Of a DNA stretch of 64,000 nucleotides, positions 5,509 to 53,254 are shown one piece after another. How positions within the stretch are numbered: the first letter of the stretch is position 1; each line of letters starts with the position of its first letter. A program made the position numbers and the translations under genes. Under the pieces are notes generated by a model that did not search any database, was not told the DNA's origin, and was given only the letters and a program-made list of their open reading frames with translations. This DNA is from Candidatus Latescibacterota bacterium (GTDB lineage: Bacteria > Latescibacterota > UBA2968 > GCA-2709665), in NCBI GenBank assembly GCA_963667175.2, contig CAXXXF010000015.1, positions 1-64,000 on the forward strand, read 5' to 3'.

Positions 5509-5742
5509 AAACGGATCTCCTTGCTCCCCGCAATCAGGCCGTGCAGGTTTGTGGCTTCTTTCAAGGAAAACACCCAAATCCGGACGGAACACAGGACGGT
5601 GTTGCACGTCGCAATGCCCGTGATGCGTCTCTTCCCTTTCGTAAGACACATTCCGGAGGGTTCTGGTTCAGATTATCTAATCGCAATCTGGCACTCTTTC
5701 ACAGGAATGGGGCGCCTTGAGGCATGACGTCATCGGCCAAAA

Positions 5743-5773
5743 CAAAGAAGGGTCCTGAACGGACCCTTCTTTG
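5743..5773. terminator. Intrinsic terminator hairpin
   Basis: CAAAGAAGGGTCC-TGAAC-GGACCCTTCTTTG, downstream of the 5838-6356 gene. Confidence 0.7.
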
Positions 5774-5837
5774 GGGATATATATAAGCTACTATTTATTA
5801 ATATTTTATATCCTTTTCCCCGTTTGACAAAAGGCGG

Positions 5838-6356: not shown

Positions 6357-6610
6357 TGTCGTTGTCCCCAGACCCGGCCGGCCGCCGCACATCCAGTGCA
6401 AATGGAACGGAGTACACTAACCTCAATCCGAAAAAAACAGCAACTCGGCGACGCGACAATACCCTCCGAATCGGGGCGTTATCGACGTAAAGAAGGACGT
6501 TTTTTCCTTCACGTCCAGTGACGTGGTGTATCCTGGTAATCCGCCGTCTAATCGCCTTTATTTACAATCACATATTCGAATTAACGTCCCCGAAGACTTA
6601 CGAATCAAGG

Positions 6611-7534: not shown

Positions 7535-8319
7535 GAGAGTTTGCCTTCCACATGGTCCAGAAACGCGGGATTGCCAGACGTCACGCCCCCGTCGGCCACG
7601 ACAACCGAGCCGGTAACGAATGACGCCTCCTCCGAGGCGAGAAAGAGCGCAACGTTCGCGATCTCCTCGGGTCTGCCCACGCGTTTGAGGGGATAAACCT
7701 CTGCGATACGTTCGAAAATCCGAGGGTCTTTTTCGAGTACGTGCTGCCACCCTTCCGTGATGACGGTACCGGGGCAGATTGCATTTACCCGCACGCCATC
7801 CGGGCCGTAATCCACCGCCGTTGTTCTGGTGAGCGAAATGACGCCCGCCTTTGCCGCGCTGTACGCGGCCTCGCCAAACGACATCAGTGCGTTGACGGAC
7901 GAAATATTCACGATCGACCCGCCTCCGCGAAGGATCATCCGCGGAAGCGCCGCACGGCTGCACAGGTAGGCGCTCTTCAGACATCCCTCGATATTCCGGT
8001 CCCACAGTTCCGGATCGATGTCCGGGACATGGGTACCATGGCAATAATAGGCATTGTTCACCAGAATATCGAGGCCGCCGAATTCTTCCAGGGCCACATC
8101 CAGCGCCCGGTTGACATCCGTTTCGTCCGTAGCGCTGCCGACTACGAGCGCCGCCTCTCCGCCCGCCCCGCGGATCGACTCGACCACGGCCTCCCCGCGT
8201 CCCTCATCGAGTTCCAGCACAACCACGTTCGCGCCTTCCTTCGCGAACCGGATGGACACCGCCTTGCCGATGCCGGCGCCTCCGCCCGTAATCCACGCGA
8301 CCTTTCCTTCTAACCGCAT
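7531..8319 (-). CDS. SDR family oxidoreductase
   Basis: TGGGAGIG, NNA, YSAAK motifs. Confidence 0.95.
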   Translation of the reverse strand: MRLEGKVAWITGGGAGIGKAVSIRFAKEGANVVVLELDEGRGEAVVESIRGAGGEAALVVGSATDETDVNRALDVALEEFGGLDILVNNAYYCHGTHVPDIDPELWDRNIEGCLKSAYLCSRAALPRMILRGGGSIVNISSVNALMSFGEAAYSAAKAGVISLTRTTAVDYGPDGVRVNAICPGTVITEGWQHVLEKDPRIFERIAEVYPLKRVGRPEEIANVALFLASEEASFVTGSVVVADGGVTSGNPAFLDHVEGKLS

Positions 8320-37722: not shown

Positions 37723-38069
37723 ACCGATACTCTCGTGTGAAAAATACAAGGTTGCGGCGTCGATGTCAAGCCGGAAAACGCCAGCGAACACGGTTCCTGT
37801 ACCTCCGCGGTTGGCTGGAAAGCCATTGACAAACCCGAGCGAATACGGTACACTGGTATCAGTGTCCTGTCCCGGAAAACCCTCACCATTCGGCCGCACA
37901 TTCATCCCATCTCGCCGCGTTCCCCTCGCTCGCTGATCTTACTCAGGTCGCCTGCGCTTCGGCGCCTTGCGAGCCGGGCGACTCTGCGGCCGAATTCTGG
38001 CAACTTATTTCCGGGACGGAACACCGGTTCATGCCGCATGATTTCCGACTGCCGTGGGAGTTCTCCGAT

Positions 38070-39413
38070 ATGCGCGTTCTTCTTCGGGCTCTGGCGCTCG
38101 TCCTGCTTCTGCCGGCCCTGTGCCGGGCGGGAGGTTCGGTCTACGTCGTACCCATCGAGGGTACCATCGAGGGGGGGTTGGCCGCCTTCATCTCCCGGGT
38201 CATGGAAGAAGCGGAAGCAGAGGACGTGTCGGCGGTTATCTTCGAAATCGACACCCCAGGCGGCGCGCTGGACGCGGCCCTTGTTATCCGGGACGCGATC
38301 CTTTACAGCGACGTGAAGACGATTGCCTTTATCAACCCCCGTGCGATTTCGGCCGGCGCATTGATTTCACTGGCCACCCGGCATATCGTCATGGTGGAAG
38401 GGGGGACGATCGGCGCGGCCACGGCCGTGGACATGCAGGGAAAGAAAGCCAGTGAAAAAGTGATCTCCTATTTCCGCAACGAGATGAAGGCGACCGCCGA
38501 GAAGACGGGCCGCCCTCCCAAACTCGCGGAGGCGATGGTCGACGAAGACGTGGATATAGCGGATCTCGCACCGAAAGGTAAGCTGCTGACGCTCACCACG
38601 ACCGAGGCGGTTGCGAAGAAGATCGCGGAAACCACGGTTACGGCAACGGGCGACGGCGACAAACTCCGGGCAGTACTGGCGCACTACGAACTGGATGGGG
38701 CGCGGATAACCCGCCAGTCGGTGAACTGGTCGGAGCAGGTCGTGCGCTGGCTCACCCATCCGATTGTGGCGTCGTTGCTGATGTCGCTCGGTTTTCTGGG
38801 ATTGATTTTTGAGATCCAGAGCCCGGGTTGGGGCGTCGGCGGCACGATCGGCCTGATTTGCCTTGGTCTGTTTTTCGGCAGCCATCTGTTGGTGCAACTG
38901 GCGGACTGGACGGAAGTACTTCTCTTTTTGGGCGGTGTGATTCTGGTGATTGCCGACCTGTTTTTCATCGTCGGATTCGGAGTGCTGGCCGTTCCCGGCG
39001 TCATTCTGATGATTGCAGGTCTCTTCCTGAGTCTGATGGGACGACCCGAACTGTGGACGTGGGAGTCCGTCGGAATCGGCGCCCGGCCTTTATTGCTGGC
39101 GTTTTTGACGACGGTTCTGATCGCCGGCGTGATGTTGAAAATGCTGCCGCGCACGTCCGCGTGGAAGTGGCTGGTGCTTCAGGAAGAAGAACGCAGCGAC
39201 GCGGGTTACATTGCCACGGGAAAACATGAAGCGCTACTTGGCAAAGAGGGGGTGGCCTTTACGCCGCTGCGTCCCTCGGGTACGGGTCTGATCGACGGGC
39301 GGCGCGTCAATGTCGCGGCGGACGGCGAATTCATCGACAGGGACAGTCGGATCACGGTGGTGGAGGTTGAGGGCAACCGGATTGTCGTCCGCAAATCGGA
39401 GGAGACGGGTTAG
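38070..39413 (+). CDS. nfeD: NfeD family membrane-bound serine protease (long form, YqeZ-like)
   Basis: DTPGG, AISAGA, TM region, C-terminal OB fold TPLRPSG. Confidence 0.92.
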   Translation: MRVLLRALALVLLLPALCRAGGSVYVVPIEGTIEGGLAAFISRVMEEAEAEDVSAVIFEIDTPGGALDAALVIRDAILYSDVKTIAFINPRAISAGALISLATRHIVMVEGGTIGAATAVDMQGKKASEKVISYFRNEMKATAEKTGRPPKLAEAMVDEDVDIADLAPKGKLLTLTTTEAVAKKIAETTVTATGDGDKLRAVLAHYELDGARITRQSVNWSEQVVRWLTHPIVASLLMSLGFLGLIFEIQSPGWGVGGTIGLICLGLFFGSHLLVQLADWTEVLLFLGGVILVIADLFFIVGFGVLAVPGVILMIAGLFLSLMGRPELWTWESVGIGARPLLLAFLTTVLIAGVMLKMLPRTSAWKWLVLQEEERSDAGYIATGKHEALLGKEGVAFTPLRPSGTGLIDGRRVNVAADGEFIDRDSRITVVEVEGNRIVVRKSEETG

Positions 39414-39472
39414 CAACGGACGGGAATTGGGAAATCCGGCTCCGTCGACCGAAGTTGAACCGGAGACATGGT

Positions 39473-39781
39473 ATGGTCGAAGGAATTGTGATTTTATTCG
39501 TCCTTATCGTCGCCATTGCGGTTCCGCTGCGGAAATGGCTTGTTCTCCACGCCGACGAAAGGGCGGAAGCCGGCTACATCGCCACGGGAACACATGAAGC
39601 GCTACTTGGCAAAGAGGGGGTGGCCTTTACGCCGTTGCGCCCCTCGGGTACGGGTCTGATCGACGGGCGGCGCGTCAACGTGGCTGCCGACGGGGAGTTC
39701 ATCGAAAGGGATTGCCGGATCAAGGTCGTCGAGGTCGAAGGCAACCGGGTTGTGGTTCGAAAAACCGAGGACGCCCGCTAG
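39473..39781 (+). CDS. Short NfeD protein (one TM plus OB fold)
   Basis: Near-identical copy of the upstream NfeD C-terminus. Confidence 0.85.
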   Translation: MVEGIVILFVLIVAIAVPLRKWLVLHADERAEAGYIATGTHEALLGKEGVAFTPLRPSGTGLIDGRRVNVAADGEFIERDCRIKVVEVEGNRVVVRKTEDAR

Positions 39782-39830
39782 AGACGTCGCCGGTTGAGTC
39801 CGATCGTTTGCAGATACAAGGAGTCGTATC

Positions 39831-40829
39831 ATGGTCGATGCAGCCCTGCTTCTGGTCATTGTTGTCGCTGTAGTCGTCGCGCTGTTCCTATTCTTCTATT
39901 TCATACCGGTCGGGCTCTGGATCTCGGCCCTTGCGGCCCGCGTCCGAATCGGCATCGGGGAACTGGTGGGGATGCGCCTGCGGCGCGTTCCCCCGCGAAT
40001 CATCCTGGGGTCGCAGATCAGCGCCACCAAGGCGGGTCTGGCGATTCCGACCTCCTTCCTGGAAGCGCATTACCTGGCGGGAGGACACGTGGAGAACGTG
40101 GTAACGGCCCTTATTGCGGCTGACAAAGCCGGGATCAATCTCACCACGGAGCGGGCCGCGGCCATCGACCTGGCAGGCCGAAACGTGCTGGAGGCCGTCC
40201 AGGTCAGCGTCAATCCCAAAGTGATTTCCACGCCCATGGTCACGGCCGTGGCGAAGGACGGTATCCAGGTCAAGGCCACGTCACGGGTGACGGTGCGCGC
40301 CAACATCGACCGGCTTGTGGGCGGGGCCGGCGAAGAAACGATCGTCGCGCGCGTTGGCGAAGGGATCGTGACGACGATCGGATCCTCGGAAACGCACAAG
40401 GCCGTTTTGGAGAACCCGGATCTGATTTCGAAAACCGTGCTGGGGAAGGGGCTGGATTCGGGCACGGCGTACGAGATCCTGTCGATCGATATTGCGGACG
40501 TGGACGTGGGTGACAATATCGGGGCGAAACTTCAGACGGACCAGGCCGAGGCCGACCTCAAGATTGCGCGGGCCAAAGCGGAGGAACGGCGGGCGATGGC
40601 GGTCGCCCACGAGCAGGAGATGAGCGCGAGGGTCGTCGAGATGCGGGCGCGCGTCGTGGAGGCCGAGGCCGAGGTGCCGCGCGCAATGGCCGAAGCGTTC
40701 CGCAGCGGCCATCTGGGCGTGATGGACTATTACCGCATGCAGAATATCCAGGCCGATACCTCGATGCGCGAGGGGATCGCCGACACCCAGGAGGGCGCGG
40801 AGGACGATACGGACAGGAGCGAATCGTAA
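39831..40829 (+). CDS. floA: Flotillin-like protein FloA (YqfA)
   Basis: [43 protein letters not shown]. Confidence 0.95.
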
Positions 40830-40832
40830 GCC

Positions 40833-41471
40833 ATGAGTTTCGAGTTCACCATCATCCTGCTGATCGTGACAGGCTTGATTTCCTCTCTGGTCAACAAGTT
40901 CTTTGAATCCCGGCGGCGTCGGGAACTGGAGGATGAGGATCCGGATCTGCCCCCGTTGGGCGGGCCGGTCGTCGACCCTTCCGAGGATGACGTCTTTCCC
41001 GAACCGCAAACCTTTGGACAGCCGCCCGCGGGGCGGGAGTTCAGAGAGGTCAGGGGCACGAGGCCGGTAAGCGAAGCGCCCACGGGAGAGGAATTTCGGG
41101 AGATTCGGGGCGCTCGCCCCGTGGACGAGCCTCGGGGTGGAATCGAGTTTCGGGAAGTCAGGGGCGCGCGGCCGGTGAGTGAGGAGTACGACGGGGTCGA
41201 ATTCAGGGAGGTGGAATTCGACCGCCCCGACGATGGCCGCCCCGGCGGAGCCAATATCGGAGGCCCGCCGGCTGAACGGCCTCGCGATGGGTCTGAAACC
41301 GCGGCGGAAGCCCCGGCGGACGACTTGCTGGAGGACCTGCCGCTGGTTTTGGCGCCTCGCCGTCGAGCCCGCCGTCGCAGGATCCGGCTCGATTTTAAAC
41401 CGCAAACGGTCCGCAAGGCGATCGTCTACCACGAAATTCTCGGGCCTCCCGTGGCGGATCGACGGCCGTAG
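40833..41471 (+). CDS. YqfB-like membrane-anchored protein with internal repeats
   Basis: N-terminal TM; C-terminal RKAIVYHEILGPP; position after floA. Confidence 0.75.
   Translation: MSFEFTIILLIVTGLISSLVNKFFESRRRRELEDEDPDLPPLGGPVVDPSEDDVFPEPQTFGQPPAGREFREVRGTRPVSEAPTGEEFREIRGARPVDEPRGGIEFREVRGARPVSEEYDGVEFREVEFDRPDDGRPGGANIGGPPAERPRDGSETAAEAPADDLLEDLPLVLAPRRRARRRRIRLDFKPQTVRKAIVYHEILGPPVADRRP
41037..41216 (+). repeat. Degenerate 54-bp (18 aa) coding repeat
   Basis: EFRE(V/I)RG.RPV.E units starting at 41037, 41091, 41145 and 41199. Confidence 0.85.
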
Positions 41472-41583: not shown

Positions 41584-41742
41584 TCGGCGACGGCTGATGC
41601 GGTGGGGGTAGCGAACCCTGGCGTACCCTCTCAATCGCGTTCGCCCGGCCTGTCATCCTGAGGAAAGCCCCGTCTGCCGTGCCCGGACAGCTTGTATGTC
41701 GGGCGGAATTTAAACAACGCTATCTGTAGAGGAATAGGTTGT

Positions 41743-42024
41743 ATGCGCTGGCCCGAGATATGCAAAGACCGTCCCGATAAGTGGCTGATTGTTGAGGCAT
41801 TAGAAGCCCATACAACCTCTGATTGTCGGCGGCATCTGAATCGTCTGACAGTGGTTGAAGAATGCCCGGATGGCAAAACAGCTATGAAACGGAATCAGAC
41901 CCTTCACCATCAATATCCCGAACGGGAATATTATTATCTCCATACCAGTCGTGATTCACTTGATATTCAAGTAAGACAATCGTCGGGTATTCGTGCGCTG
42001 TATGCAACTGGTACGCAGGTATGA
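41743..42024 (+). CDS. Small hypothetical protein (partner upstream of an aspartyl protease gene)
   Basis: MRWPEI...PDKWLIVEALEAH...YYYLHT; AGGA RBS; AT-richer than host. Confidence 0.75.
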   Translation: MRWPEICKDRPDKWLIVEALEAHTTSDCRRHLNRLTVVEECPDGKTAMKRNQTLHHQYPEREYYYLHTSRDSLDIQVRQSSGIRALYATGTQV

Positions 42025-42163
42025 TCTGCCATTTACATCGGTGTCTATTGACTATCGGGGATCAACTATTGAGATCCCTCAAGTCCTGGTCGATACCGGA
42101 TCAGCCAGCACGGTAATATCCTCCGATCCTGACGGGCGGCACGCATTTCGACGAGTTCGATGA
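42002..42163 (+). pseudogene. Truncated retropepsin-like (clan AA) aspartyl protease
   Basis: Manual translation MQLVRRYDLPFTSVSIDYRGSTIEIPQVLVDTGSASTVISSD..., stop after 53 aa. Confidence 0.75.
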
Positions 42164-42271
42164 ACGCGGTCCGACGGACTGAAAAATCCCCCTTGAACGG
42201 GAGCGAACGCCTGTTTCCTCTTGACAGTTTAAGTGCCGATTGGGATATTTGTCGCCCCATGAATCAATGAC

Positions 42272-42358
<87 letters not shown>

Positions 42359-42368
42359 GAACCAAAGA

Positions 42369-42394
42369 AAGGCACCTGCGAAAGCGGGTGCCTT
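42369..42394 (+). terminator. Hairpin terminator after tRNA-Leu
   Basis: AAGGCACCTGC-GAAA-GCGGGTGCCTT. Confidence 0.75.
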
Positions 42395-42548
42395 GTTCTT
42401 CTCCAATAAGAATTATGACTAAGTGTAACTCAATCTCAACCGAATTCGGCTATGCGCCTTGCCACGTTGCTTCCATTAGCTCAAATGTCCCAAAAACTAC
42501 GTTAACGATATCCGATCTGTCACTAATATTCGAAGGAGTAATAACAAA

Positions 42549-43649
42549 ATGGCAAAACACACAGTCTATATTGATGAAAGTGGGAATACTGGTGCCAATT
42601 TCCTGGATGAAACTCAGCCCATTCTTGTTTTACTTGGAGTGGGAATTCCCCACGAATCAATGTCAGATATCCTATTGAGACTTGATGAGGCAAAAAGGAA
42701 GTTCGGCTATTCTGTAGATCATCCGTTACACGCGAGGAATATCGCCCAGCGAACCAGAGAGCGTCTTTGCCAGAAAGTATTGAATTTGTTGATGGAGTAC
42801 GAATTCAACCTGTTTGTGTCCGTTTCAGAAAAGGAATATGTCTTGGCTACGATAATCTATGATTATTTTTTTGATCCGGCGTACAATGATCATTGCGATG
42901 TGACATGGACCCACCCATCACACATGAAACCTGAACGAGCTGATTTTATATACAATTGTCTTTCTGACGATGCCTGGCGAGTCTGTGGTCAAGCGTTTCG
43001 AAATGGCGACAAGATGCAACAGGCGTACGAGTTGGTTCTTAATGACATCAAGAACAAGACTTGCGATATTGACCTTTACCCAATCCTTCAAGGAGCGAAA
43101 GCCCATATCGACGAATTGGCAACGGCGTTTGCGTCTTCCTCTAAAGCTGATCCTAGCGGCCGTTTGCCGACTGGTGTCCGCAATTCTCCCAATATTCTCG
43201 GATTTTGTGGACTTACGAACAAGATTGAACAGTACTACGGTAAACTCGGACAGGAAGTAACAATTATGTTTGATCATTCAAGACAGTATACGGTTGCATT
43301 CCTTGATATGTTCTCGCGGTTACGGGACGCCAAGAACGCCAAACTGAAGATGAAGGGAACGCTGCCATTACAATTGGGATATAATGCACTAAAGCGATTT
43401 GATGCAGACAAATCCAAGAAAAATAGCTTCTTGCAGTTGTCCGATTTGGTGGCTACATCAGTGATGGACTGCCTATTAAAAGCACACAAGGGTGTTTCCC
43501 TGTCTGTAGATGAGGCATGTCTGTTATACCTAATTGTGGATTACTGGGGAAAATTCGAGGAGACCTTCTGCGATTTTTCGGTCTCTACGCGTTTTCTGAG
43601 ACAGGTCGGAGACGCAATTGGGTCTGCCTCAGATGTGACGACGAGATAG
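42549..43649 (+). CDS. DUF3800 domain protein (RNase H-like fold)
   Basis: YIDESGNTG N-terminal motif, IMFD, LQLSDLVA; AAGGAG RBS. Confidence 0.85.
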   Translation: MAKHTVYIDESGNTGANFLDETQPILVLLGVGIPHESMSDILLRLDEAKRKFGYSVDHPLHARNIAQRTRERLCQKVLNLLMEYEFNLFVSVSEKEYVLATIIYDYFFDPAYNDHCDVTWTHPSHMKPERADFIYNCLSDDAWRVCGQAFRNGDKMQQAYELVLNDIKNKTCDIDLYPILQGAKAHIDELATAFASSSKADPSGRLPTGVRNSPNILGFCGLTNKIEQYYGKLGQEVTIMFDHSRQYTVAFLDMFSRLRDAKNAKLKMKGTLPLQLGYNALKRFDADKSKKNSFLQLSDLVATSVMDCLLKAHKGVSLSVDEACLLYLIVDYWGKFEETFCDFSVSTRFLRQVGDAIGSASDVTTR

Positions 43650-43752
43650 CATACGAACAGAATCTTTGACGTTGAAGTGTCCTTCGTTTTGTGTGCTTGT
43701 ACCCACGTGTTTTATTAACCTTTCCTCACAGATAATTGTTAAGGGTATTGAA

Positions 43753-44217
43753 ATGAGTGATCTTGAAGAATTCCCAGGCATTAAGTACGCATATCCATTA
43801 GCGGTGGAGAGCTATACAATAATGCAACAGCGATTTGATGCCGTTAATGGGTTGCTGCAACAATCTCTAACAACCATAATATCCTTAAATCTAGGTGTTG
43901 TGGCATTGTTACGAATTTTCCCAGATAAGGAAGCCACTTGCCTCTTTATGATTGCTGTTGGTCTTGGTTGTGCTGCGGCGATAACAGCAATTGCTGGAAG
44001 ATTATGGTTAAGGATTTCTGCACTTGATCCAAAACTTGTGTGGGAACATGCATTGAGGAAGGATGAATTCGAATTTAAGAAAGACCTGATTTTTGGTGCC
44101 GGGGAATCATTTGCGAAAAATAGACGGCGAGTAGCACAGAAACAAGGGTGTTCGGCTATTGCCCTAATTCTTATGTTTGTGGAGGTTGTGATTATTGGCG
44201 TTTGGATGATTCAGTAG
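43753..44217 (+). CDS. Hypothetical 3-TM membrane protein
   Basis: Three hydrophobic segments; N......K motif before the last TM. Confidence 0.75.
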   Translation: MSDLEEFPGIKYAYPLAVESYTIMQQRFDAVNGLLQQSLTTIISLNLGVVALLRIFPDKEATCLFMIAVGLGCAAAITAIAGRLWLRISALDPKLVWEHALRKDEFEFKKDLIFGAGESFAKNRRRVAQKQGCSAIALILMFVEVVIIGVWMIQ

Positions 44218-44374
44218 CCTCTTCCCTATTAATAGGCTCAATTATGGTTGTCGTGTCGTAGTTCTTATCATCATAGGTTTCTGTATGAATTGGTGGCGTT
44301 ACTGGTGGTTCCGGAGTTGTTTGGGCCTGCTGGTCGGTTGAACTGTCCTTAGGGTCATTTCCGTTTTTGGGCAT
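44192..44374 (-). CDS. Small acidic Pro/Thr-rich peptide (60 aa)
   Basis: AAGGAG RBS before ATG 44374; MPKNGNDPKDSST...PEPPVTPP. Confidence 0.5.
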   Translation of the reverse strand: MPKNGNDPKDSSTDQQAQTTPEPPVTPPIHTETYDDKNYDTTTIIEPINREEATESSKRQ

Positions 44375-44594
44375 TTTATGCTCCTTTCGTCCTTGAAGAG
44401 TATTATGGTTAGTGTCGGAAGAATTCAACCCTCTGAGAGGAGTCGTGCGAGATATCGACAGCGTTGTCACCTAACCTATCTTCGGGTAAGGTCCGGCTAA
44501 TCACGGAACGGATTTTTGAAGGCGCGTGCAAGGTTGTCCATTGTAGGGCCATTGGGTGTGGTTTTCTATACGTCAATCGGTTAGTTCCGGTTCG

Positions 44595-46073
44595 CTACGT
44601 TTGTGTCAGGACGGCTTCCATAATATCCTTAGCAGTGCGCGGGGATGGCGAGACCGCTACCAAAGTCCGGAAGACCCTACGGTATATCGCAGCTTCGTCG
44701 GTGGAAATACTACTCAACGGCGTGCAGCTTTGTCCAGCTTGAAAGTTCTCCAACTTCCTCCCAACGGCTTCGAGTTGTTCGAAGGTGATTTCCAAACGGC
44801 CATTCATTGAGAGCATCTGGTTTCGGAGTTCGGCGAATTGGCTCAATGAACTTACTACCAATGCGCTGGCATCTTCAGGAGCCAGATATCCAGATACGGC
44901 CAATTCATATGTCTCCTCCAATTGACACAGCACGGAATAAAGCTTGCGGTTATTGTTCCGTGTCGTGGATGCCTTTCGACATCGTGCAGATGTTCTGCGA
45001 AAGACGGCACCAAGATGGTTTTCGAGATTTCTGATGTGGGGACCGGGTTCGAAGTAATCGCGACGCCCATTTGGCACGATGCGAGAATCTAGAACGTGTA
45101 TTTCCCCAATGCACCAACGGTTAAACCGCTCCTCGGGAAAAAGGTGTTCAAATGCGGACTCATCGCCGACCTGTATATTTCCCACACGCGCTCGGATTCC
45201 TCTGATTCCTGTTTCCTTCGGTATTGCTCCTAGGTATGAGGAATGCCCGATCCATCCTATTGCGGCAATTCCGTTCCCATCGGCAGACGGGATATAGATC
45301 TCTTCGAAATCGGTAAAGGTGTCCTCTCGCTCTTTTGACAACCGGATCGTGTCACCATATCGTCGTGTTATGGATGATTCTTCATCGTCCAGCACAATAT
45401 CAAGCGTTAATGGCGATGTGTCTTGTTCAAACAGAGTGATGACTCTTGAAGCATATGGAAACTTGGTCGAAATCGGAACGGGACAAATGTCTGCGATGTA
45501 ATCTCGAACAGCGACACGGTTTAGAATTCTCGACGCGGCATGCCGTCCTACGCCGCAAATCCTAACTTCGAAAAAGTTAGCAGGATAATCAGACCCTGGA
45601 AGAGTTTCAATTTCGACGCACTCGTGAATCACACGATCGTTTTCGCAGTGTTGACGTACTCGTTCTCGAAGCTTTGTACCATCCCAGACAACGCGGGTAA
45701 CGGGGTCACCGTGCCGAGTACGCGTAAAAAATGAAACAGAGTCAGCAAACGCGAGACCGGATAGACGTCCGATACCGCGAAAGCCCCTGTCTGTCCCTTG
45801 TCGCTTCTGGCTACGAGCGACCGGAAGTAACGCTCGGACCGCCGCTTCTTTAGATAGACCCGGACCATTGTCGGTAATACTGACGCTCGAGCTCGACGGG
45901 TCGATCTTGATTCTTACCTGACCTAGAGAGCCATTGCCCACCGTCGAGAGTGCATCCGCTGCGTTCTGGATGTATTCGCGGTAAACGGCAAGCGGATTAT
46001 CGTACATCCCAGAAGTAATGAGACCCCAAATATCGCCGCCGATAAATGGTGCAAATCCTTCTTTATCTTTCAT
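44595..46073 (-). CDS. GHKL (MORC/Hsp90/MutL-like) ATPase
   Basis: YREYIQNAAD, DNGPG and GFRGIG Bergerat-fold motifs; S5-like region GEIHV...PNGRRDYF; C-terminal coiled coil. Confidence 0.88.
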   Translation of the reverse strand: MKDKEGFAPFIGGDIWGLITSGMYDNPLAVYREYIQNAADALSTVGNGSLGQVRIKIDPSSSSVSITDNGPGLSKEAAVRALLPVARSQKRQGTDRGFRGIGRLSGLAFADSVSFFTRTRHGDPVTRVVWDGTKLRERVRQHCENDRVIHECVEIETLPGSDYPANFFEVRICGVGRHAASRILNRVAVRDYIADICPVPISTKFPYASRVITLFEQDTSPLTLDIVLDDEESSITRRYGDTIRLSKEREDTFTDFEEIYIPSADGNGIAAIGWIGHSSYLGAIPKETGIRGIRARVGNIQVGDESAFEHLFPEERFNRWCIGEIHVLDSRIVPNGRRDYFEPGPHIRNLENHLGAVFRRTSARCRKASTTRNNNRKLYSVLCQLEETYELAVSGYLAPEDASALVVSSLSQFAELRNQMLSMNGRLEITFEQLEAVGRKLENFQAGQSCTPLSSISTDEAAIYRRVFRTLVAVSPSPRTAKDIMEAVLTQT

Positions 46074-46095
46074 TTCTCTTTCCACAATGTGAGAC

Positions 46096-47739
46096 TTAGT
46101 TTGTGAGCTTAGATGATCCCTTACTTTCTCTACGTAGCGAGTACTCGTGGTCGAAGAGCCCCGCATCCTCGACGACCTCATCTTCTTTAGGCATTGCAAA
46201 TCTTGTGCCGGATTCGGGAAACAAATCTAACGCTTGACTGTGTCTGACATCCGGCTTGTCTTTTGTGTCCAGCAGGTGAAACTGCATGACTTCTCGAATA
46301 AGCCTGTCCACGCTTCTGTCGTTCCCAAGCATTCGATAATGTTCTCGTCGTAAACCCGTCCCTTGTGCTGGCTCCGAAAGATGATTAATCAGTTCTCGGT
46401 TTTGACTCTCTGATAATCGCTTACGTAGCGACATATACTCATCGAGTTCTGCTCGACCGTCGCCATTTTCGTAGTGGTCACGATAGAAGATAAACGCATG
46501 TGGAAGGCTCAGCAGCCTTTCAAATGCCCCCTCGTCCTCCCCATAAGCCCGTACAAAGAAGGAAGGGTTGCCACTAACTATTCCGTGAGTCGCTTGAAGC
46601 ATAATCTGGAATGAACGAAGATAGTACCTGTACCAGTTTTTCCCTACATGTGAACGATCCTTCAACGTGACTGGTTGATACCGCATTGGGAATGACCAGA
46701 TTCGAACCCCCAACTCCTCGTTCAGTGCTATGTTCAGACGCATACGTTTATACAAGTCTCGGGGGGTATCCATGAAGTTGTAGAGCATGTAATTGGACAA
46801 CGAGGTAATTCCGTTTTCTGCCGCCATTCGGACCGCGATTTCATATACCTTGCGGACGCCCATATGGTCGAACGCGATGCGAAGAGGACTGATACATATT
46901 GTCGCCATCTCCCGCAGAAACATTGGCGACTTTGCCAGTATTCGAGCATCAACACCTTGGTTGAAATCGACACGGCGATTGACTGGGCGTTGACCATCTC
47001 GGTGAAGTTTTGCGCCAGGCTTGAAACCAAGGTCACGGATTTCAGCGATCACTTCCTTGTAACGCCACGAAGCGGTGATGTTGTTGTCCATCAATACAAG
47101 GTCTTTTTTCGGTCCATACATGGTTTCAACACCATCAACGAGTTTCGCAAGTGGTGGCATTTCTTTTTGTCCACCCTCAAGTTTGGGGACTCCACAGAAG
47201 GCGCACTTCCGCACGCAGCCCCGCGAGGCGTACCCAAAATAAGCGTCACGCACCGGATAGCGGTAATCGATATGTTCGAGGATGCTGTAGTCCGGGACCA
47301 ATTCCTCTATCGGCGTACTTCGCAGGTCATCCGCGCCAAAGTCGCCATCGTCTTCAGACAACGCGAGCGCTGCAGCTGGAGGTCCGCCCAGTAATCCTTT
47401 GATAAATCGAACACCTGCCCAACGCGGTTCGTTCACGAACTCGTCGTACATTAAGGAGGCCGCAATTCCTCCTACGAACACACGCTCGGGTTGGTTGCCG
47501 GCTGCTTGAATGGCAAAATCAATCGCTGCCGCTGTACGTTTCCACTCGAAACTAAAAAGCGTTGTTACATAAACTCGGTCCCACGGTTCAAGCAAGACAT
47601 CGTTCGCTTTACCCTTGATAAAACGCACCCTGTCACCACGCCCCTGGTGGCCGTGGTAGGATGCCAGCTTCATCAAACCGAGGGGTGGGTACTTGTTAGG
47701 ATAACCTGGTTCGATTAGTAGCACGTTTTTTCGAGTCAT
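46096..47739 (-). CDS. Radical SAM protein with N-terminal cobalamin-binding-like domain
   Basis: RGCVRKCAFC (CX3CX2C); N-terminal YPPLGLMKLA...VFVGG; MDNN, DFNQG. Confidence 0.9.
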   Translation of the reverse strand: MTRKNVLLIEPGYPNKYPPLGLMKLASYHGHQGRGDRVRFIKGKANDVLLEPWDRVYVTTLFSFEWKRTAAAIDFAIQAAGNQPERVFVGGIAASLMYDEFVNEPRWAGVRFIKGLLGGPPAAALALSEDDGDFGADDLRSTPIEELVPDYSILEHIDYRYPVRDAYFGYASRGCVRKCAFCGVPKLEGGQKEMPPLAKLVDGVETMYGPKKDLVLMDNNITASWRYKEVIAEIRDLGFKPGAKLHRDGQRPVNRRVDFNQGVDARILAKSPMFLREMATICISPLRIAFDHMGVRKVYEIAVRMAAENGITSLSNYMLYNFMDTPRDLYKRMRLNIALNEELGVRIWSFPMRYQPVTLKDRSHVGKNWYRYYLRSFQIMLQATHGIVSGNPSFFVRAYGEDEGAFERLLSLPHAFIFYRDHYENGDGRAELDEYMSLRKRLSESQNRELINHLSEPAQGTGLRREHYRMLGNDRSVDRLIREVMQFHLLDTKDKPDVRHSQALDLFPESGTRFAMPKEDEVVEDAGLFDHEYSLRRESKGSSKLTN

Positions 47740-48746
47740 TTTGTGCCAAATACCTCAATCATCTTGTTGATTCTTCTCATTTGTTGTGATAATCTGCGGA
47801 CGGCTTGTCTAAACGCGTTGAAATTACTCTGATCCAACTGTGAGACCTCCTTCCGAGACACATCATCCAGCAGTACCCAGGCTTGCCTTACATTTTCTTC
47901 CACCTTACTAATCTTTGCGAGTTGAAATCCTTCATCTAGTTCGATTTTTCCATCGGAAAACTTCTTCAGGACTTTTGGCTTTTTAAGAATCACAGGTAGT
48001 TTCTTCCTAAGGTCTTGTGCAGTGAACTTGTGTTCCTCGACCTCACTTTCCATGTTCTTTATCTTCCCAAAGAGAACTTCGGTGAGTTTGTCTGATTTCT
48101 CCATTTCCTTTAGAACTGACGTGTTACGTACCAAGACATCGTAGTAACTAAAATGGGACCGATCGTTATCCTCGTTGTGCTTCATCATTTCAACTACTTT
48201 GACCCTTGTACGTATTGTGACGCTAGATTCGCCAAACAATTCTGCGACTTTGTCGACACTCCATCCTTGATCTTTGCGCACGTAAGCAAAATTGGCCTTT
48301 TCATAAGCAGACCACTGTGTCTTTCCCTTTACGTGAATTTGATTCAAAAATGCTGCCTGCTGGTCGTCTGTTAGACCCGTTACTACGTTGCATTGAATCC
48401 GCTCCCAGTCCCCCGGCTCACCTTGTTGATGTAACTTTCGATAAACCGCCAATCTTGAATTGCCCTCAATTACCTCCATCGTGTCTCTTCGAATTAAGAT
48501 TGGCTCGATAAGGCCGCCGTGGCGCACAATCTCTGGAACCAGTTTCCTCACGCTCGGTTCCTCAAGCAATTTCTTATAGATCAGATCTTGTTTCTCTTCC
48601 TCGATTAACTGGGCGAAATCAGGTTCCGAGTGCATACAGGCATAAACTCTAGGATTATCCTTGAGAAATTTAAGTTTGTAGATGTCTTCATCGCCGTTAG
48701 CAAGATAGATGGATTCACCCAAAATTCTCATTTCGTTATTTGCCAT
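47736..48746 (-). CDS. ParB/Srx-like N-terminal domain protein (copy 2)
   Basis: NPR, GGLIEPILI, VIEGNSRL, H..G...WSAYEKA. Confidence 0.85.
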   Translation of the reverse strand: MANNEMRILGESIYLANGDEDIYKLKFLKDNPRVYACMHSEPDFAQLIEEEKQDLIYKKLLEEPSVRKLVPEIVRHGGLIEPILIRRDTMEVIEGNSRLAVYRKLHQQGEPGDWERIQCNVVTGLTDDQQAAFLNQIHVKGKTQWSAYEKANFAYVRKDQGWSVDKVAELFGESSVTIRTRVKVVEMMKHNEDNDRSHFSYYDVLVRNTSVLKEMEKSDKLTEVLFGKIKNMESEVEEHKFTAQDLRKKLPVILKKPKVLKKFSDGKIELDEGFQLAKISKVEENVRQAWVLLDDVSRKEVSQLDQSNFNAFRQAVRRLSQQMRRINKMIEVFGTK

Positions 48747-48771
48747 GTCGTGTCAACCCTTCCGATGGCGA

Positions 48772-50238
48772 CTACGCAGCGCTTACGGGGACGAGTAGCT
48801 CTGTCAATGTACCCTTCAGATCATGAGCGAAAACTGTATCGAACTCTTCGCGTGATACGTCACCTTGTGTTAACTGTGCCGCCTGATACTTTGCATTCAA
48901 CAGCATGTCGACCCACTCATCGATAGTGTTTCTAGCGATAAGGTTATGGACGAAACAATCTTCCGTTTGAGAAATCCGGTGGATGCGATCTTGTGCTTGT
49001 AGGTAGTCATCAAGACTGAATCCACGGTCATAGAATATCGCGTGATTTGCAACAGTCAATGTTAACCCTTCTTTTGCCGACCCGGGTGTAGCCAACAATA
49101 CCCTGCAGTTTGAGTTTGTCTTGAACCGTCTAATCGACTCGTTTCGATCATCCACGGACATATGGCCGTGGACTTTGCGTGGCATAAGATAATCTAGTTC
49201 GCGGCTTAACCATTCGACGTTTTTGATAAATCCTGTCCAAATAATCGCTTTGTTTGACCGAATATCGATTTCGTCAATCAACTCAGCCAACTTTGCCTGT
49301 TTTGCTGAGATTTCATCATAGGTCTCATCCACCAAGGTTGGATTTGAGGCACACTGCACCAAACGCAACAAGCGTTTCAGAATGTCTTCGGCATCATCTA
49401 ACGACAAGTCGTTTTCGGTTTGCATCTCGTAGCTCAGCGCATCTCTGTAAGACGCGTAGATTTCAGATTGACGAGGTGCGAGTTCGACCGAATGAGTAAG
49501 GATCGTCTTTTCGGGAAGCTCAATTCCTGCTGTCCGCTTCGTATCGCGTATCGAAAAACTCTTGATCTTCTCCATAACATTGGATAACCGGCTGCCATAC
49601 TCTGATGCGCAACGAGACTGCGACGGTAGGTCCAGCGCATCTTTGAACTCAGCGTACGAAGCCCCCAATGTTGTACCGCCATCGAGGAACTTTATCTGTG
49701 ACCAGATATCAAACGGGCGATTCGCGACAGGAGTTCCTGTCATGATTACACGTCGCGCAAAACAGTCGAAAATTGAATGGAAACTCGCCGAAATCCTTGA
49801 CTCTGGATTCTTAATCTTTTGGCTTTCGTCCAAAATCGCGGCTGCTCGGCACGTTGCCAGAAATTCCCCCAAGAGGTCGAGATTTGCTGAGACGACTTCG
49901 TAGTTCATTATGTAGATGAGAACCGGTGAATTTAGCGCAATGCTGTTATGGCGACGATTACCCGAAAGAACTCTAGGTGTGACAAATGAATGAGATACCA
50001 ACTCATCAAACCAATTTTGAACTAACGACTTCTTTGTTATAACGAACGTTGTATCAACTATGTCTTCACTTAGCCAATGCAACATTAGATCGATGGCAAT
50101 TTTGGTCTTTCCGAGCCCCTGCTCATGGAAAATTGCGGCATACGGTAAGGATTTGATGGACCTTACGGCATCAAGTTGATAAGGATAGGCGTCGTGTTTG
50201 GCGCTCAGTCGTGGGGGTTTTCTCAGCTTAAACGCCAT
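48772..50238 (-). CDS. SNF2-family helicase/translocase
   Basis: EQGLGKT, DESQ, TGTP, EGLTLT, QAQDRIHRISQ. Confidence 0.92.
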   Translation of the reverse strand: MAFKLRKPPRLSAKHDAYPYQLDAVRSIKSLPYAAIFHEQGLGKTKIAIDLMLHWLSEDIVDTTFVITKKSLVQNWFDELVSHSFVTPRVLSGNRRHNSIALNSPVLIYIMNYEVVSANLDLLGEFLATCRAAAILDESQKIKNPESRISASFHSIFDCFARRVIMTGTPVANRPFDIWSQIKFLDGGTTLGASYAEFKDALDLPSQSRCASEYGSRLSNVMEKIKSFSIRDTKRTAGIELPEKTILTHSVELAPRQSEIYASYRDALSYEMQTENDLSLDDAEDILKRLLRLVQCASNPTLVDETYDEISAKQAKLAELIDEIDIRSNKAIIWTGFIKNVEWLSRELDYLMPRKVHGHMSVDDRNESIRRFKTNSNCRVLLATPGSAKEGLTLTVANHAIFYDRGFSLDDYLQAQDRIHRISQTEDCFVHNLIARNTIDEWVDMLLNAKYQAAQLTQGDVSREEFDTVFAHDLKGTLTELLVPVSAA

Positions 50239-50666
50239 GTTGGGTGCCCAATTGGGTCAAGTCTCCAGAAGTCACATCCGTCATGGACTTCAATCTGTGT
50301 CTTGCTCGCTTGTATGCGGGTTCGCGTGAATCGTAATATTGACTTGGCAAGGTCGGCCCTGCAGCCCGTCACCGAAAGTACGAATAATCCGAAACTCTTC
50401 CGTTCTAGATAAGTGATAAAGGTCTCTATCTGGTTGTACGTGTGAGTCCTTTCAACGTCCTTATCGGTCTTAGCTTCAGCTATAACAGCCGAATTTTCGA
50501 CCGTGTTAATTGCATACAAATCTGGTCGGTATCGGTCGATTAACGGAGGAATTGGCTCGCCAGGACTTTCTTGTAAGTCGGCGATTATCGAGAATTCAGG
50601 ATAACGAGACTCAAGTGCCTTAGCTACTTGGGTCACGAGGTCTCTGTGGGTATCACTCTGAGACAT
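50223..50666 (-). CDS. Small PD-(D/E)XK nuclease-fold protein
   Basis: H...V, RPDL and AEAKT motif spacing; overlaps both neighbours. Confidence 0.75.
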   Translation of the reverse strand: MSQSDTHRDLVTQVAKALESRYPEFSIIADLQESPGEPIPPLIDRYRPDLYAINTVENSAVIAEAKTDKDVERTHTYNQIETFITYLERKSFGLFVLSVTGCRADLAKSILRFTRTRIQASKTQIEVHDGCDFWRLDPIGHPTWRLS

Positions 50667-51687
50667 CTTGAAGTAGATTGTGCAAGCTATCAGACAGGTC
50701 TTCAAGGGACTGGATTTGGTCAGATACCTCATCGCTTTCTTTGCTTTTTAGCGTGCGCACCTCGGAATACGGCAAATCATTGATACGTCGTGCTAGAATT
50801 GCAGAAAGTTGATATATAGAAATCGTGTCCAACTTCGTGTCATCGGCCGTTTCGGTTCGCTCTCGTTGTGTCTTCTTGTCTAGTATTGCTATTGCCTCCT
50901 CAATTGAGCGGGGGCCTCCATTTAGGAATTCATCCTTTGCCTCATCGTCGCGAAGTACACGTGGCAACTGCCGAACGTCGGCCAAGCGGTAGATCTTACC
51001 GTCGCGAATCCATTCGCCAAAATGCCTTAAATCCAATCCAGCATCAAATATGGCTTCTTTAATCTTTGGTTTCTGAAGTTCAACAAAACCACTAAACCTG
51101 TCAATATGGAAAGCCGTGTCATCCACTATATCCCGATAATACTCATTCATGTCCTGATAAGCGTCAATTTGACGCTCAATTTCAGTCTTATTTCCGCCGC
51201 ATAAAGCCACCATTTCATTGTAGTCCATGAATTCTTGGTTGCGCAGATAATGTAGATATCTTGCCTTCTCGTACGCTGGCCATTCCCTAGCACCTACCAA
51301 GTGTGCTGACACACGGATCATTTCGACATCGCGTTCGTTTACATCCTCAATGATAATTGCCTTAATGCTGGACCACGACCCTTTCATCCCCTCTCTCAAG
51401 AACTGTTTGTAGATCGCAAGTCGAGTGTTTCCATCGATACAGACATACCCGTCTTTCCCATGTATAACTGTGACCGGAGCCATTACACCTCCGCTGGCTC
51501 GAATCGCATCCCTTAGCTGGGTATATGACGAAGACCCGCTTTCGCCGTCTGTCGCCGACCTCAAAGCAAAGTGAATACGTTCAGCATTCAGCTGGTCCCC
51601 GTACTTTTCCAACGCCTTCTTGATTCGTGGGTTTTCTGTGTCGAACGAAATATCATCGACCTTTAGCCTGGTATAATTGTCTGTCAT
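50653..51687 (-). CDS. ParB/Srx-like N-terminal domain protein (copy 1)
   Basis: ENPRI, GGVMAPVTV, CIDGNTRL, H..G...WPAYEKA. Confidence 0.85.
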   Translation of the reverse strand: MTDNYTRLKVDDISFDTENPRIKKALEKYGDQLNAERIHFALRSATDGESGSSSYTQLRDAIRASGGVMAPVTVIHGKDGYVCIDGNTRLAIYKQFLREGMKGSWSSIKAIIIEDVNERDVEMIRVSAHLVGAREWPAYEKARYLHYLRNQEFMDYNEMVALCGGNKTEIERQIDAYQDMNEYYRDIVDDTAFHIDRFSGFVELQKPKIKEAIFDAGLDLRHFGEWIRDGKIYRLADVRQLPRVLRDDEAKDEFLNGGPRSIEEAIAILDKKTQRERTETADDTKLDTISIYQLSAILARRINDLPYSEVRTLKSKESDEVSDQIQSLEDLSDSLHNLLQDVSE

Positions 51688-51829
51688 TTTGTCCCCATTT
51701 ATAGAAAAAATCGATCAGTGCGCCGCCAATAATCACGCCCCACGACTCGAGCGATAATCCTTTGAGATGGATCGTGAGGGATTGGGGTCCTTGATTTGCG
51801 GCGTCAGTTTTGCATTTTCTCTCGCAAAA

Positions 51830-51857
51830 AGTATAAGCATCTTTCACACAATGTCAA
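51830..51857 (-). promoter_or_regulatory. Near-consensus sigma70 promoter for the six-gene operon
   Basis: Minus strand TTGACA-16 nt-TATACT. Confidence 0.7.
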
Positions 51858-52102
51858 CAATGGAGCGGACCTTGCAAGTGCACTTGTCAATTATTCCTGA
51901 ACCCCCAGAAGTCAACTCGAATAAGTTTTTCGAATTGAGCCTGCTGAGGTCTTCTAGAGAGTTATACAAGTGGATTCAGGCAGCCAGTTTACCCTCCATG
52001 TGGGTCGGGGTTTCGACGAGACTTTCCGACCCGCCTGCCTGACCCGCGGAACAAGCGAGTTCGTATACACCGTGGGCATGCGGTGAAATTCAGCGGATTC
52101 CC

Positions 52103-53254
52103 TCACGGCCACAGCGTATCGGCGGCAAGCAGGTTGGAAAAGTGTGAAAACGGGAGGACCTCGATACCGTCAGCGGTCCGCAATTCAGGCCCGTCGGGAT
52201 AAACGACAAGCCTGCGGCAAAGTCCCGGCAGCTCGGTCAGAACCCTTAGTCCCTTGCACCAGGATTCCGCGAACGCGCCGCCGGATTTGACTTCGATTGC
52301 CACGAATTCCCCGCCGCGCTTGAGCAGGAAGTCCACCTCGGTACCGGTCTGCGCCGCGGTCGACCAATAGAAGCACTCGTCGCAGACATGACGGTAGTCT
52401 GTATACGCCCGGATCAACTGGGCAATCAGGCCTTCGAATAGAGCGCCGCGCTCCTCCGGGGCGGGAGGCGTCGTGACCCGTTTCATCGCCCGTACGAGAC
52501 CGGGGTCGCACCAATACCACTTTGGCATTTTGCGTTCGCGCACGCGCAATCGGGTCTCGTATGCAGGAAGTTGAAAGCAGAGGAGTGTTTCTTCCAGGAT
52601 CTGCAGGTATCCCGTCACTGTCGTGCGCGCAACCTGAGCTTCTCTTGCGATGTTGGTCGCGTTGAAGGTCTGGCCGTGAAAGAGCGCCGCAACCGGGAGA
52701 AAGCGCGCGAATCCGGGAAGGTTCCGCACAAGTGCCTCTGCTTGTATCTCCTCTTTGAGATACATCTGCGTATAGGCAACCAGTGTCTCCGCCCTGTCAT
52801 CCGAATCCCATACGATGGGCAGCAGTCCATGTTGCAAGGCGTCGTCGAGCGCGAACCGTTCTCCCAACTCCTCGGGAGTAAAGGGATGCATCGCGCGATT
52901 CAGGGCGCGGCCCGCAAGGAGGTTGACACCTGCCCTTTTGAGTTTTCTTGCACTGGACCCGCACAATACAAAGCGCATTCGCTTTTCTTCGATAAACCGG
53001 TGTACCTCGTTAAGCAACGTCGGCAATCTCTGCATCTCGTCCAGAACCACCCACCGGTCATCCGGCACGGCGCGCAGCTCCGCGGCAAGGAGACCCGGAT
53101 TCGCAAGCAGGCGCTGGTACGTATCCTCGGCGAGCAGATTCACGACGTGCGCATCCGGAAATGCCGATCGCAGACAGGTGCTCTTTCCAACGCCGCGAGG
53201 TCCCAGGAGAAAGAAGCTCTTCCGGGGGGCGTCAAATATGCGTGGAATTGTCAT
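52103..53254 (-). CDS. AAA_14 ATPase with DUF4143 C-terminal domain
   Basis: GPRGVGKST, LDEMQ, GSS, LAGR, DPGL, EVDF, IEVK. Confidence 0.92.
   Translation of the reverse strand: MTIPRIFDAPRKSFFLLGPRGVGKSTCLRSAFPDAHVVNLLAEDTYQRLLANPGLLAAELRAVPDDRWVVLDEMQRLPTLLNEVHRFIEEKRMRFVLCGSSARKLKRAGVNLLAGRALNRAMHPFTPEELGERFALDDALQHGLLPIVWDSDDRAETLVAYTQMYLKEEIQAEALVRNLPGFARFLPVAALFHGQTFNATNIAREAQVARTTVTGYLQILEETLLCFQLPAYETRLRVRERKMPKWYWCDPGLVRAMKRVTTPPAPEERGALFEGLIAQLIRAYTDYRHVCDECFYWSTAAQTGTEVDFLLKRGGEFVAIEVKSGGAFAESWCKGLRVLTELPGLCRRLVVYPDGPELRTADGIEVLPFSHFSNLLAADTLWP

Follow-up and report, generated by a model that had tools for sequence, protein, structure and literature searches.

A conserved radical SAM protein and Hsp90-like ATPase pair in a possible Dnd/Dpd-like defence island of a Latescibacterota bacterium

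What does a radical S-adenosylmethionine (SAM) protein do in an operon of DNA-processing genes? This question is raised by a 64,000-nucleotide stretch of a Candidatus Latescibacterota bacterium (contig CAXXXF010000015.1 of assembly GCA_963667175.2, positions 1 to 64,000; hereafter the window), in which a radical SAM (rSAM) gene at 46096..47739 on the minus strand forms part of a tight six-gene, ~7 kb operon. Read along that strand, the operon encodes a ParB-like protein (ParB2), a small nuclease-like protein, an SNF2 helicase, a second ParB-like protein (ParB1), the rSAM protein and a GHKL ATPase. Overall, the rSAM protein and the Hsp90-like GHKL ATPase are an inseparable, co-evolving pair, joined to interchangeable nuclease/translocase modules. 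At a probability of roughly 45%, we read the whole as a mobile anti-invader defence system resembling Dnd and Dpd, with the rSAM protein as its conserved modification core acting, as we infer, on DNA.

We first consider the identity of the rSAM protein, which belongs to the radical SAM superfamily by both motif and fold. Its 547-residue open reading frame (ORF) starts at an ATG and is open on the minus strand only (the strand had been left unstated in the first-pass annotation of this locus), with a plus-strand translation riddled with stops. Since 7122 of 8000 scored database candidates match it at E ≤ 1e-3, a chance ORF can be excluded. The family comprises more than 7000 clusters at 90% identity; clustering at 50% identity leaves 1630 representatives that match at E ≤ 1e-3, of which 260 also do so at E ≤ 1e-30, and the top 120 database matches are 72–96% identical to the protein. 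The cluster motif is C175-x3-C179-x2-C182 (CX3CX2C), and its three cysteines are invariant in 17/17 close homologues (alignment A1); across a more diverse alignment (A2, n = 39), C179 and C182 remain invariant and C175 is at least 90% conserved. The Pfam Radical_SAM model (PF04055) matches the window protein at E 8.7e-4 (19.9 bits, under its gathering score of 29.5) and 35 of the 39 A2 relatives at E ≤ 0.01 (best 4.3e-9), while the NCBIfam ladderane B12-rSAM and RimO models reach E ~1e-3. Searches of the Protein Data Bank (PDB) matched the cluster loop only, with a best E of 0.69 for the sequence and 0.043 for the profile, and the ESM Atlas returned unnamed rSAM clusters only.

The fold is more telling. 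An AlphaFold model built on the 39-member alignment (predicted local distance difference test, pLDDT, 85.1; predicted template-modelling score, pTM, 0.84) places a predicted Rossmann-like N-domain at about residues 1–115, made of alternating strand–helix units (E5-10, H20-29, E37-42, E55-60, H63-79, E87-91), before a disordered loop (120–140), a barrel with C175/C179/C182, a helical C-domain (~400–490), a disordered linker and an acidic tail; the low-confidence segments are the loop 120–140, the short stretches 458–461 and 499–514, and the last ~30 residues. All 25 PDB matches listed by Foldseek at E ≤ 0.001 are rSAM enzymes, the ranking being led by TsrM (3.4e-9), MiaB, MgmA, OxsB, AprD4, TokK, CysS and RimO, with spore photoproduct lyase also among the matches; a viral fold library returned generic COG1032-type phage rSAMs. 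Much of what the first-pass annotation had read from the letters was thereby borne out, i.e., the CX3CX2C motif, the strings quoted as a Rossmann-like N terminus, and an ATGA coupling to the upstream gene, which is read directly in the DNA as an overlap between that gene's stop and the rSAM start (M-T-R-K-N at 47739).

A class B, cobalamin-dependent type of enzyme had also been proposed. The two-domain layout behind this proposal is recovered by the model, since the top Foldseek matches include TsrM, MgmA, OxsB, TokK and CysS, so that the architecture appears class-B-like and the protein may use cobalamin. The suggested fold-search check for a B12-binding domain cut both ways: it returned a Rossmann-like fold and class B enzymes, but MiaB/RimO score just as highly, as does AprD4, an enzyme free of cobalamin, so that cobalamin binding is only a possibility; AprD4 indicates that this fold can function without cobalamin. 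Weak matches to the B12-binding model PF02310 were obtained for 6 of the 39 A2 relatives and for 3 of 17 further relatives. A methylthiotransferase of the MiaB/RimO/MtaB kind was considered and rejected: residues 1–174 contain no cysteine, so that the N-domain is not a methylthiotransferase-type cluster domain, and no TRAM match was found. To our knowledge, no known class B rSAM enzyme acts on DNA, their substrates being small molecules, peptides or proteins. Where a 2026 review refers to DNA modification, it does so only for the rSAM superfamily at large (PMC12931638).

The partner encoded directly downstream is a GHKL/Hsp90-like ATPase (44595..46073, minus strand; 492 residues), with the Bergerat-fold motifs (E-x3-N, DxGxG, GxxGxG) and a middle domain. 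The mechanically called ORF extends to a TTG at 46199; the start is probably the ATG at 46073, 22 nucleotides past the rSAM stop, which we preferred because of the homologue alignment and a purine run resembling a ribosome-binding site. HATPase_c_3 matches at E 2.4e-8, residues E33, N37, D68 and G97/G100/G102 are invariant in 29/29 sequences, and G70/G72 are at least 90% conserved. The structural model (pLDDT 87.4) comprises an N-domain, a middle domain and a long helical C-region, and its top Foldseek matches are TRAP1/GRP94/Hsp90 (E 6e-17); weak matches to the TmtA (Tiamat) and BbrUII-type models were also seen.

To establish how this pair behaves across genomes, we scanned one genome per species, confirmed 527 loci, and used the best 80 (54–76% identity). 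These span Acidobacteriota, Chloroflexota, Alpha- and Gammaproteobacteria, Nitrospirota, Thermodesulfobacteriota, Gemmatimonadota, Verrucomicrobiota, Latescibacterota, Nitrospinota and one Woesearchaeota metagenome-assembled genome (MAG). The ParB gene, which the first-pass annotation had singled out as the coupled partner, does hold that position here, but the near-obligate partner is the GHKL ATPase, encoded directly downstream of the rSAM gene in 76 of the 80 loci and in at least 10 phyla, whereas ParB belongs to a separable four-gene module (ParB2–small protein–SNF2–ParB1) present within 10 kb in 46/80, be it upstream, downstream or inverted. The two genes of the pair overlap by 4 bp in 34/74 cases, and their pairwise protein distances correlate strongly (r = 0.89, 74 loci), compared to r = 0.46 between rSAM and SNF2 (46 loci); for the 43 loci with all three genes, the values are 0.91 and 0.48, respectively, indicating that the rSAM–GHKL pair travels as a unit while the helicase module reassorts. 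With mean p-distances of 0.39 for rSAM, 0.52 for SNF2 and 0.63 for GHKL, the rSAM protein is the slowest-evolving component, as fits a modification enzyme with more variable partners. In an rSAM relative on a virome contig (41% identical), a HATPase_c_3 gene precedes the rSAM gene, again with a 4-bp overlap. Co-folding of the ATPase (492 residues) with a truncated rSAM protein (141–547), run without controls, gave a score of 0.00, which speaks neither for nor against binding. Past its variable linker, the rSAM protein of all 80 loci carries a conserved acidic tail motif, [VI]ED[AS]x[LF] (V-E-D-A-G-L at about residues 523–528 in the window), which is absent from the A2 relatives at ~30–42% identity.

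The accessory genes around this pair vary. A ParB-superfamily neighbour was found in 64/80 loci and at least one nuclease/helicase-type accessory module in 75/80, the five loci without one including a 4.7-kb contig. A DGQHR (DndB/DpdB-like) gene lies directly upstream of the rSAM gene in 23/80 loci, firmly assigned by matches to TIGR03187 (E 1e-35 to 1e-40) and to the DpdB model (E 1e-12 to 1e-18), and a longer DGQHR protein is encoded nearby in 14/80. A ParB/Srx protein usually precedes the rSAM–GHKL pair, i.e., a ParB-like protein in the window and a DGQHR protein in a sister clade. Other loci carry a PIN-like gene and a GHKL paralogue (13/80), a GHKL paralogue with an unnamed 320-residue gene, at times with HerA-like and DUF5131 genes (12/80), or a NurA–HerA–GHKL set (4/80). 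None of the 80 lies in a metabolic operon, the setting that the first-pass annotation had named as evidence against its reading, and the link to DNA-handling genes that it proposed from this one operon is conserved over the 80 loci, plasmids and protein fusions rather than being a local chance.

Several of these neighbourhoods have features of their own. The GHKL paralogue of ~620 residues, nearer to BbrUII/MutL/Tiamat-type models, is always paired with the unnamed ~320-residue protein, which has a weak PP_RS20740-family match (loci L002, L005-L007, L010, L034, L035, L040, L050, L052, L063 and L078); often accompanied by HerA/DndH-C-like and DUF5131 genes, this looks like a second undescribed module accompanying the rSAM pair. 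A PIN_8-domain protein (~600–640 residues) is coupled to another Hsp90-like GHKL paralogue beside the rSAM pair (L025, L031, L032, L037, L048, L057, L059, L064, L065, L067, L070, L072 and L077, and positions 4090-7643 of the pNL1 locus L081), and this GHKL family occurs in the plasmid collection described below in rSAM-bearing records only. The window's two-ParB module is replaced at L054, L059, L061 and L072 by a variant helicase module, in which three ParB-like paralogues are encoded in tandem and the small PD-(D/E)xK-like protein is a different one (cluster c33).

In the window, the four-gene module begins with ParB2 (50653..51687, 344 residues) and ends with ParB1 (47736..48746, 336 residues), both on the minus strand, as is the rest of the operon. 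The first-pass annotation had called the latter gene ParB. This name is upheld at the level of the superfamily, through paralogy with ParB2, and not by a family model, as neither protein has a Pfam match of its own. The two align as paralogues (hhalign probability 99.96%, E 5e-39), and a search with the ParB2 profile reaches Noc/ParB structures at E 8e-4, the alignment covering the ParB N-domain with its GxxR box (EGNTR aligned to GERR), while ParB1 has conserved NPR and EGNSRLA motifs. Among orthologues, the Pfam ParB_N model matches 1/14 for ParB1, weakly, and 5/14 for ParB2 (best E 7.4e-6), its gathering score being reached in only 1 of these 28. We therefore place both in the ParB/Srx superfamily from sequence comparison, ParB1 by the indirect evidence of paralogy. 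A ParB1 protein derived from a diverged DGQHR protein was considered and rejected (hhalign probability 0.8% against the DGQHR family), leaving ParB1 as a positional counterpart of DGQHR only. A ParABS partition system was likewise set aside, as no ParA-like ORF was found in the operon and the ParB-like matches cover the N-domain only.

Between the two ParB-like genes lie the candidate nuclease and the helicase. The small protein (50223..50732, with a likely Met start at ~50666 giving ~147 residues) has no Pfam, NCBIfam or PADLOC match; its invariant residues H29, D52, P70-D71, E86-x-K88, D92 and Q101 (alignment A7, n = 16) suggest a PD-(D/E)xK-like nuclease. The SNF2-family protein (48772..50238, 488 residues; SNF2-rel_dom E 2e-27, Helicase_C E 8e-16) is a helicase core only, without a fused nuclease. 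Its matches to the ZorD and DpdE models are confined to their helicase part (positions 439–881 of 908 in ZorD), with E 1e-35 for DpdE and a better match still for ZorD. Zorya was rejected as an assignment, since the ZorD match is restricted to that part and no ZorABC matches were obtained. Profile scans of the operon proteins revealed no ordinary DNA methyltransferase.

The same association recurs on mobile elements. Full-length rSAM genes were detected in 12 of 72,556 plasmid records, some of them conjugative plasmids; a tblastn search of the same collection with the GHKL ATPase (E ≤ 1e-8) returned exactly these 12 records, and the ParB2 family was found in 7, all within the 12. In RefSeq, these plasmid genes are named only as ‘radical SAM protein’, ‘DGQHR domain-containing protein’, ‘ATP-binding protein’, ‘PIN-like domain-containing protein’, ‘ParB N-terminal domain-containing protein’ and ‘DEAD/DEAH box helicase’. 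Fused proteins give the same picture: P0270 (1359 residues) joins, in operon order, a DGQHR domain (47% identity to the operon-type DGQHR protein, E 1e-90), an rSAM domain (E 4e-80) and a GHKL domain (hhalign E 1.7e-66), while P0206 joins a degenerate DGQHR domain and P0244 an N-terminal SAP DNA-binding motif to the rSAM protein. A GHKL domain as C-terminal extension of ~800-residue rSAM relatives was considered too and dropped, the extension not being a GHKL domain. PADLOC families matched (E ≤ 1e-10) 19 of 112 flanking ORFs of at least 200 residues, a count that omits 24 further ORFs from three loci, dropped for size; the matches fall in 10 of 15 loci and comprise MkoA/B (Mokosh), type II methylases and an endonuclease, GajB, AbiL/AriA, RmrA, and mad2/mad8.

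More distant relatives are found in phages. Contexts for relatives at 35–49% identity come from a few plasmid and phage records, and the distant phage rSAM relatives are 27–30% identical. In Marinitoga camini virus 1, one such relative adjoins HerA and a NurA-like exonuclease. In Bacteroides phage LoVEphage (L084, 3957-7630), a 305-residue distant relative is encoded between genes for a phosphoadenosine phosphosulfate (PAPS) reductase and a split Dam methylase, and a cytosine methylase gene is close by, which suggests that rSAM members carried by phages, too, are part of DNA-modification gene sets.

Given these patterns, we propose a mechanism in which the rSAM protein would reductively cleave SAM and mark host DNA covalently; the class-B layout makes methylation of an unactivated carbon, in a base or sugar, the most likely form of this mark. 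The GHKL ATPase would clamp or distort the duplex and so present the target, and the ParB or DGQHR NTPase (NTP, nucleoside triphosphate) would load or regulate the rSAM protein. This last step is modelled on the Dpd system, where the ATPase activity of the ParB-like DpdB drives the modifying enzyme DpdA (PMC12839542). SNF2 and the PD-(D/E)xK-like nuclease would form the restriction arm, translocating on and cutting DNA that lacks the mark. We take the rSAM protein as the self-marking enzyme because the architecture mirrors Dnd/Ssp and Dpd and the operon is without an ordinary methyltransferase. The more specific proposal, that a possibly cobalamin-dependent rSAM protein writes, with the Hsp90-like ATPase and ParB/DGQHR, a previously unknown DNA mark as the self-label of a widespread restriction system, is tentative and on balance unlikely; the mark could then consist in C-methylation, at an unactivated carbon of a base or sugar, or in P-methylation, at the backbone.

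Several points weigh against the Dnd/Dpd-like reading. No result here touches the substrate of the rSAM protein, suggested in the first-pass annotation to be DNA or a nucleotide; the protein has no recognisable nucleic-acid-binding domain, and no sequence-specificity element was identified in the system. Two of the best fold matches, including MgmA, modify proteins, and another, AprD4, acts on a sugar without cobalamin. Cobalamin genes are not linked to the rSAM locus, and the Rfam scan of the window returned two tRNAs only, hence no cobalamin riboswitch, which says little either way. The 12 plasmid records include near-duplicates and represent ~9 independent cases, the fusions are single database proteins and possibly gene-calling artefacts, and the enrichment in defence neighbours comes without a computed baseline. 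PADLOC 2.0.0 has no model for the rSAM family, which is thus linked to no experimental defence phenotype.

The alternatives differ mainly in what the radical would act on. As an effector, the rSAM protein could damage invader DNA directly through its 5'-deoxyadenosyl radical, e.g., by abstracting hydrogen from deoxyribose and so causing a strand break or crosslink, with GHKL, ParB and SNF2 as sensors or positioners. The gene contexts apply to this possibility equally, effectors are often the most conserved part of a system, as is the rSAM protein here, and the fold matches include spore photoproduct lyase, an rSAM enzyme that acts on DNA. However, the module already holds a separate PD-(D/E)xK-like nuclease, the Rossmann-like N-domain is typical of methyl-transfer-type enzymes and not of simple radical initiators, and we know of no precedent for an rSAM protein as a direct DNA-damaging effector, so that we regard this role as improbable. 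It is also quite improbable that the substrate is a free nucleotide, turned into an antiviral or signalling molecule in the manner of prokaryotic viperins (pVips) or Ophion, with ParB/DGQHR and GHKL as NTP-handling partners. Such chemistry has precedent in defence, pVips being rSAM proteins that act on free nucleotides, and ParB/Srx and GHKL proteins both bind NTPs, but the rSAM protein matches no PADLOC model and has an architecture that we take to differ from that of viperins; its partners are a DNA translocase and a nuclease, with no kinase, phosphatase or phosphoribosyltransferase (PRTase), and the SAP fusion points to DNA. Ophion is an rSAM-based defence for which nucleotide chemistry is proposed (10.1101/2025.09.30.679545).

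Alternatively, the target could be a protein, e.g., the GHKL ATPase or ParB, or the rSAM protein could itself be a client matured by the Hsp90-like ATPase, the DNA context then arising via the modified protein. The very tight co-evolution with GHKL, the fusion forms, the protein-modifying MgmA as a top fold match, and the acidic C-terminal tail past a disordered linker, a typical partner-docking motif, are all compatible with this. We nonetheless give it a low probability, since no precursor peptide gene was seen, the DGQHR fusion fits a single DNA-bound machine, and GHKL ATPases of prokaryotic conflict systems are generally DNA-handling (Biol Direct 2008, PMC2292703). A role outside immunity, in plasmid or island maintenance, e.g., through ParB partition, or in DNA repair, e.g., by radical-based repair of a lesion, would be in line with the occurrence on conjugative plasmids and the presence of ParB-superfamily proteins. 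We consider it very unlikely: ParA is missing and the ParB-like proteins match the N-domain only, the module includes a nuclease and an SNF2 helicase, the distribution is patchy across phyla yet with high identity, and known defence genes adjoin while neighbouring modules are variable.

The setting of the operon in the window is an island of low guanine-plus-cytosine (GC) content, in which GC falls from ~0.60 to 0.41–0.55 over ~41700–52000. A tRNA-Leu(CAA) gene (42272..42358, plus strand) marks its left edge. No integrase was found, nor, at the island edges, a convincing att-type or tRNA-derived direct repeat. Inside the island and convergent with the operon, 42549-44217 (plus strand) encodes a DUF3800 protein (366 residues, E 3e-10) followed by a 183-residue predicted membrane protein; these look like a separate cargo pair, as no homologue of either was seen in the 80 related loci. 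Just outside, at host-like GC, is an AAA_14/DUF4143 ATPase gene (52103-53254, minus strand) with a strong match to the PADLOC candidate family PDC-S01 (E 5e-50). Further away, a local GC dip includes a 900-residue protein (61203-63905, plus strand) that combines a PHP domain at its N terminus with an AAA_23/SMC_N/AAA_21-type ATPase, which may be another defence-type gene. The window also encodes an 851-residue metallo-beta-lactamase/beta-CASP/RMMBL nuclease (29888-32443, minus strand), whose ~400-residue C-terminal extension is without a family match, and, within 38031-41471 (plus strand), an NfeD–FloA (flotillin-like) gene pair followed by a 212-residue ORF (40833-41471) with several tandem copies of an E-F-R-E-V-R-G-x-R-P-V-like peptide repeat.

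The rSAM family is large, unnamed and unusually conserved, with 54–79% identity over a range of phyla that includes Chloroflexota, Proteobacteria and one archaeal MAG. If the defence system proposed here is real, it would provide a new enzymatic core for bacterial immunity, and would account for an unannotated block that recurs on plasmids of rhizobia and sphingomonads. Were the rSAM protein to modify DNA, this would be a new DNA chemistry with uses in epigenetic tagging, and the previously unknown mark considered above would represent epigenetic chemistry of a new class, written by the first class-B-type rSAM enzyme known to modify DNA. With a compact ~7 kb operon and clear point mutants, the question is directly testable.

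How does the system compare with known ones? No PADLOC 2.0.0 model matches the rSAM protein, the small protein, ParB1, or the PIN-like or NurA/HerA-like partners, and we found no description of an rSAM, GHKL and ParB/DGQHR system in the full-text literature, preprint supplements lying outside that search. Class B rSAM methylases (TsrM, OxsB, TokK, CysS, MgmA) share the N-terminal Rossmann-like domain followed by a CX3CX2C barrel and are its best fold matches (E 3e-9 to 3e-6), with sequence similarity limited to the cluster loop. In prokaryotic viperins and Ophion, anti-phage defence depends on catalysis by an rSAM protein, as proposed here, but these are other rSAM families with other partners, Ophion using PHP and PRTase proteins. 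The MORC/GHL-ATPase conflict systems (restriction–modification-like MORC+SNF2 operons, Tiamat, MzaB) likewise combine GHKL, SNF2 and nucleases on mobile islands (PMC2292703), whereas the ATPase here is nearest to Hsp90 in fold and welded to an rSAM protein, a link not reported for them in the accessible part of that source.

The closest parallels are systems that modify and restrict DNA. For Dpd (7-deazaguanine DNA modification and restriction), the resemblance lies in the DGQHR proteins encoded at related loci, with DpdB matches of E down to 1e-18, and in the SNF2 helicase, whose match to DpdE models is the only DpdE-type match among the six operon proteins. Among these six, the DpdA (tRNA-guanine transglycosylase, TGT) and DpdC models had no match, and the window operon, unlike Dpd, is without a DGQHR gene. 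Profile models likewise detected no DndA, DndC, DndD or DndE homologue among them. The architecture of Dnd/Ssp (DndABCDE with DndFGH, PbeABCD or SspE) nonetheless resembles that of the present system: both are mobile with a ParB-superfamily accessory, both have a DNA-handling ATPase and an Fe–S enzyme as modifier (a role proposed for the latter here), and in both the restriction modules are exchangeable while the core is conserved. They differ in that the ATPase is SMC-like in Dnd/Ssp and Hsp90-like GHKL here, and in that the Fe–S enzyme here is a true rSAM protein with a Rossmann-like N-domain. Taken together, this comparison raises the possibility that the system is an undescribed form of modification/restriction-type defence island, with a chemistry that is perhaps categorically new.

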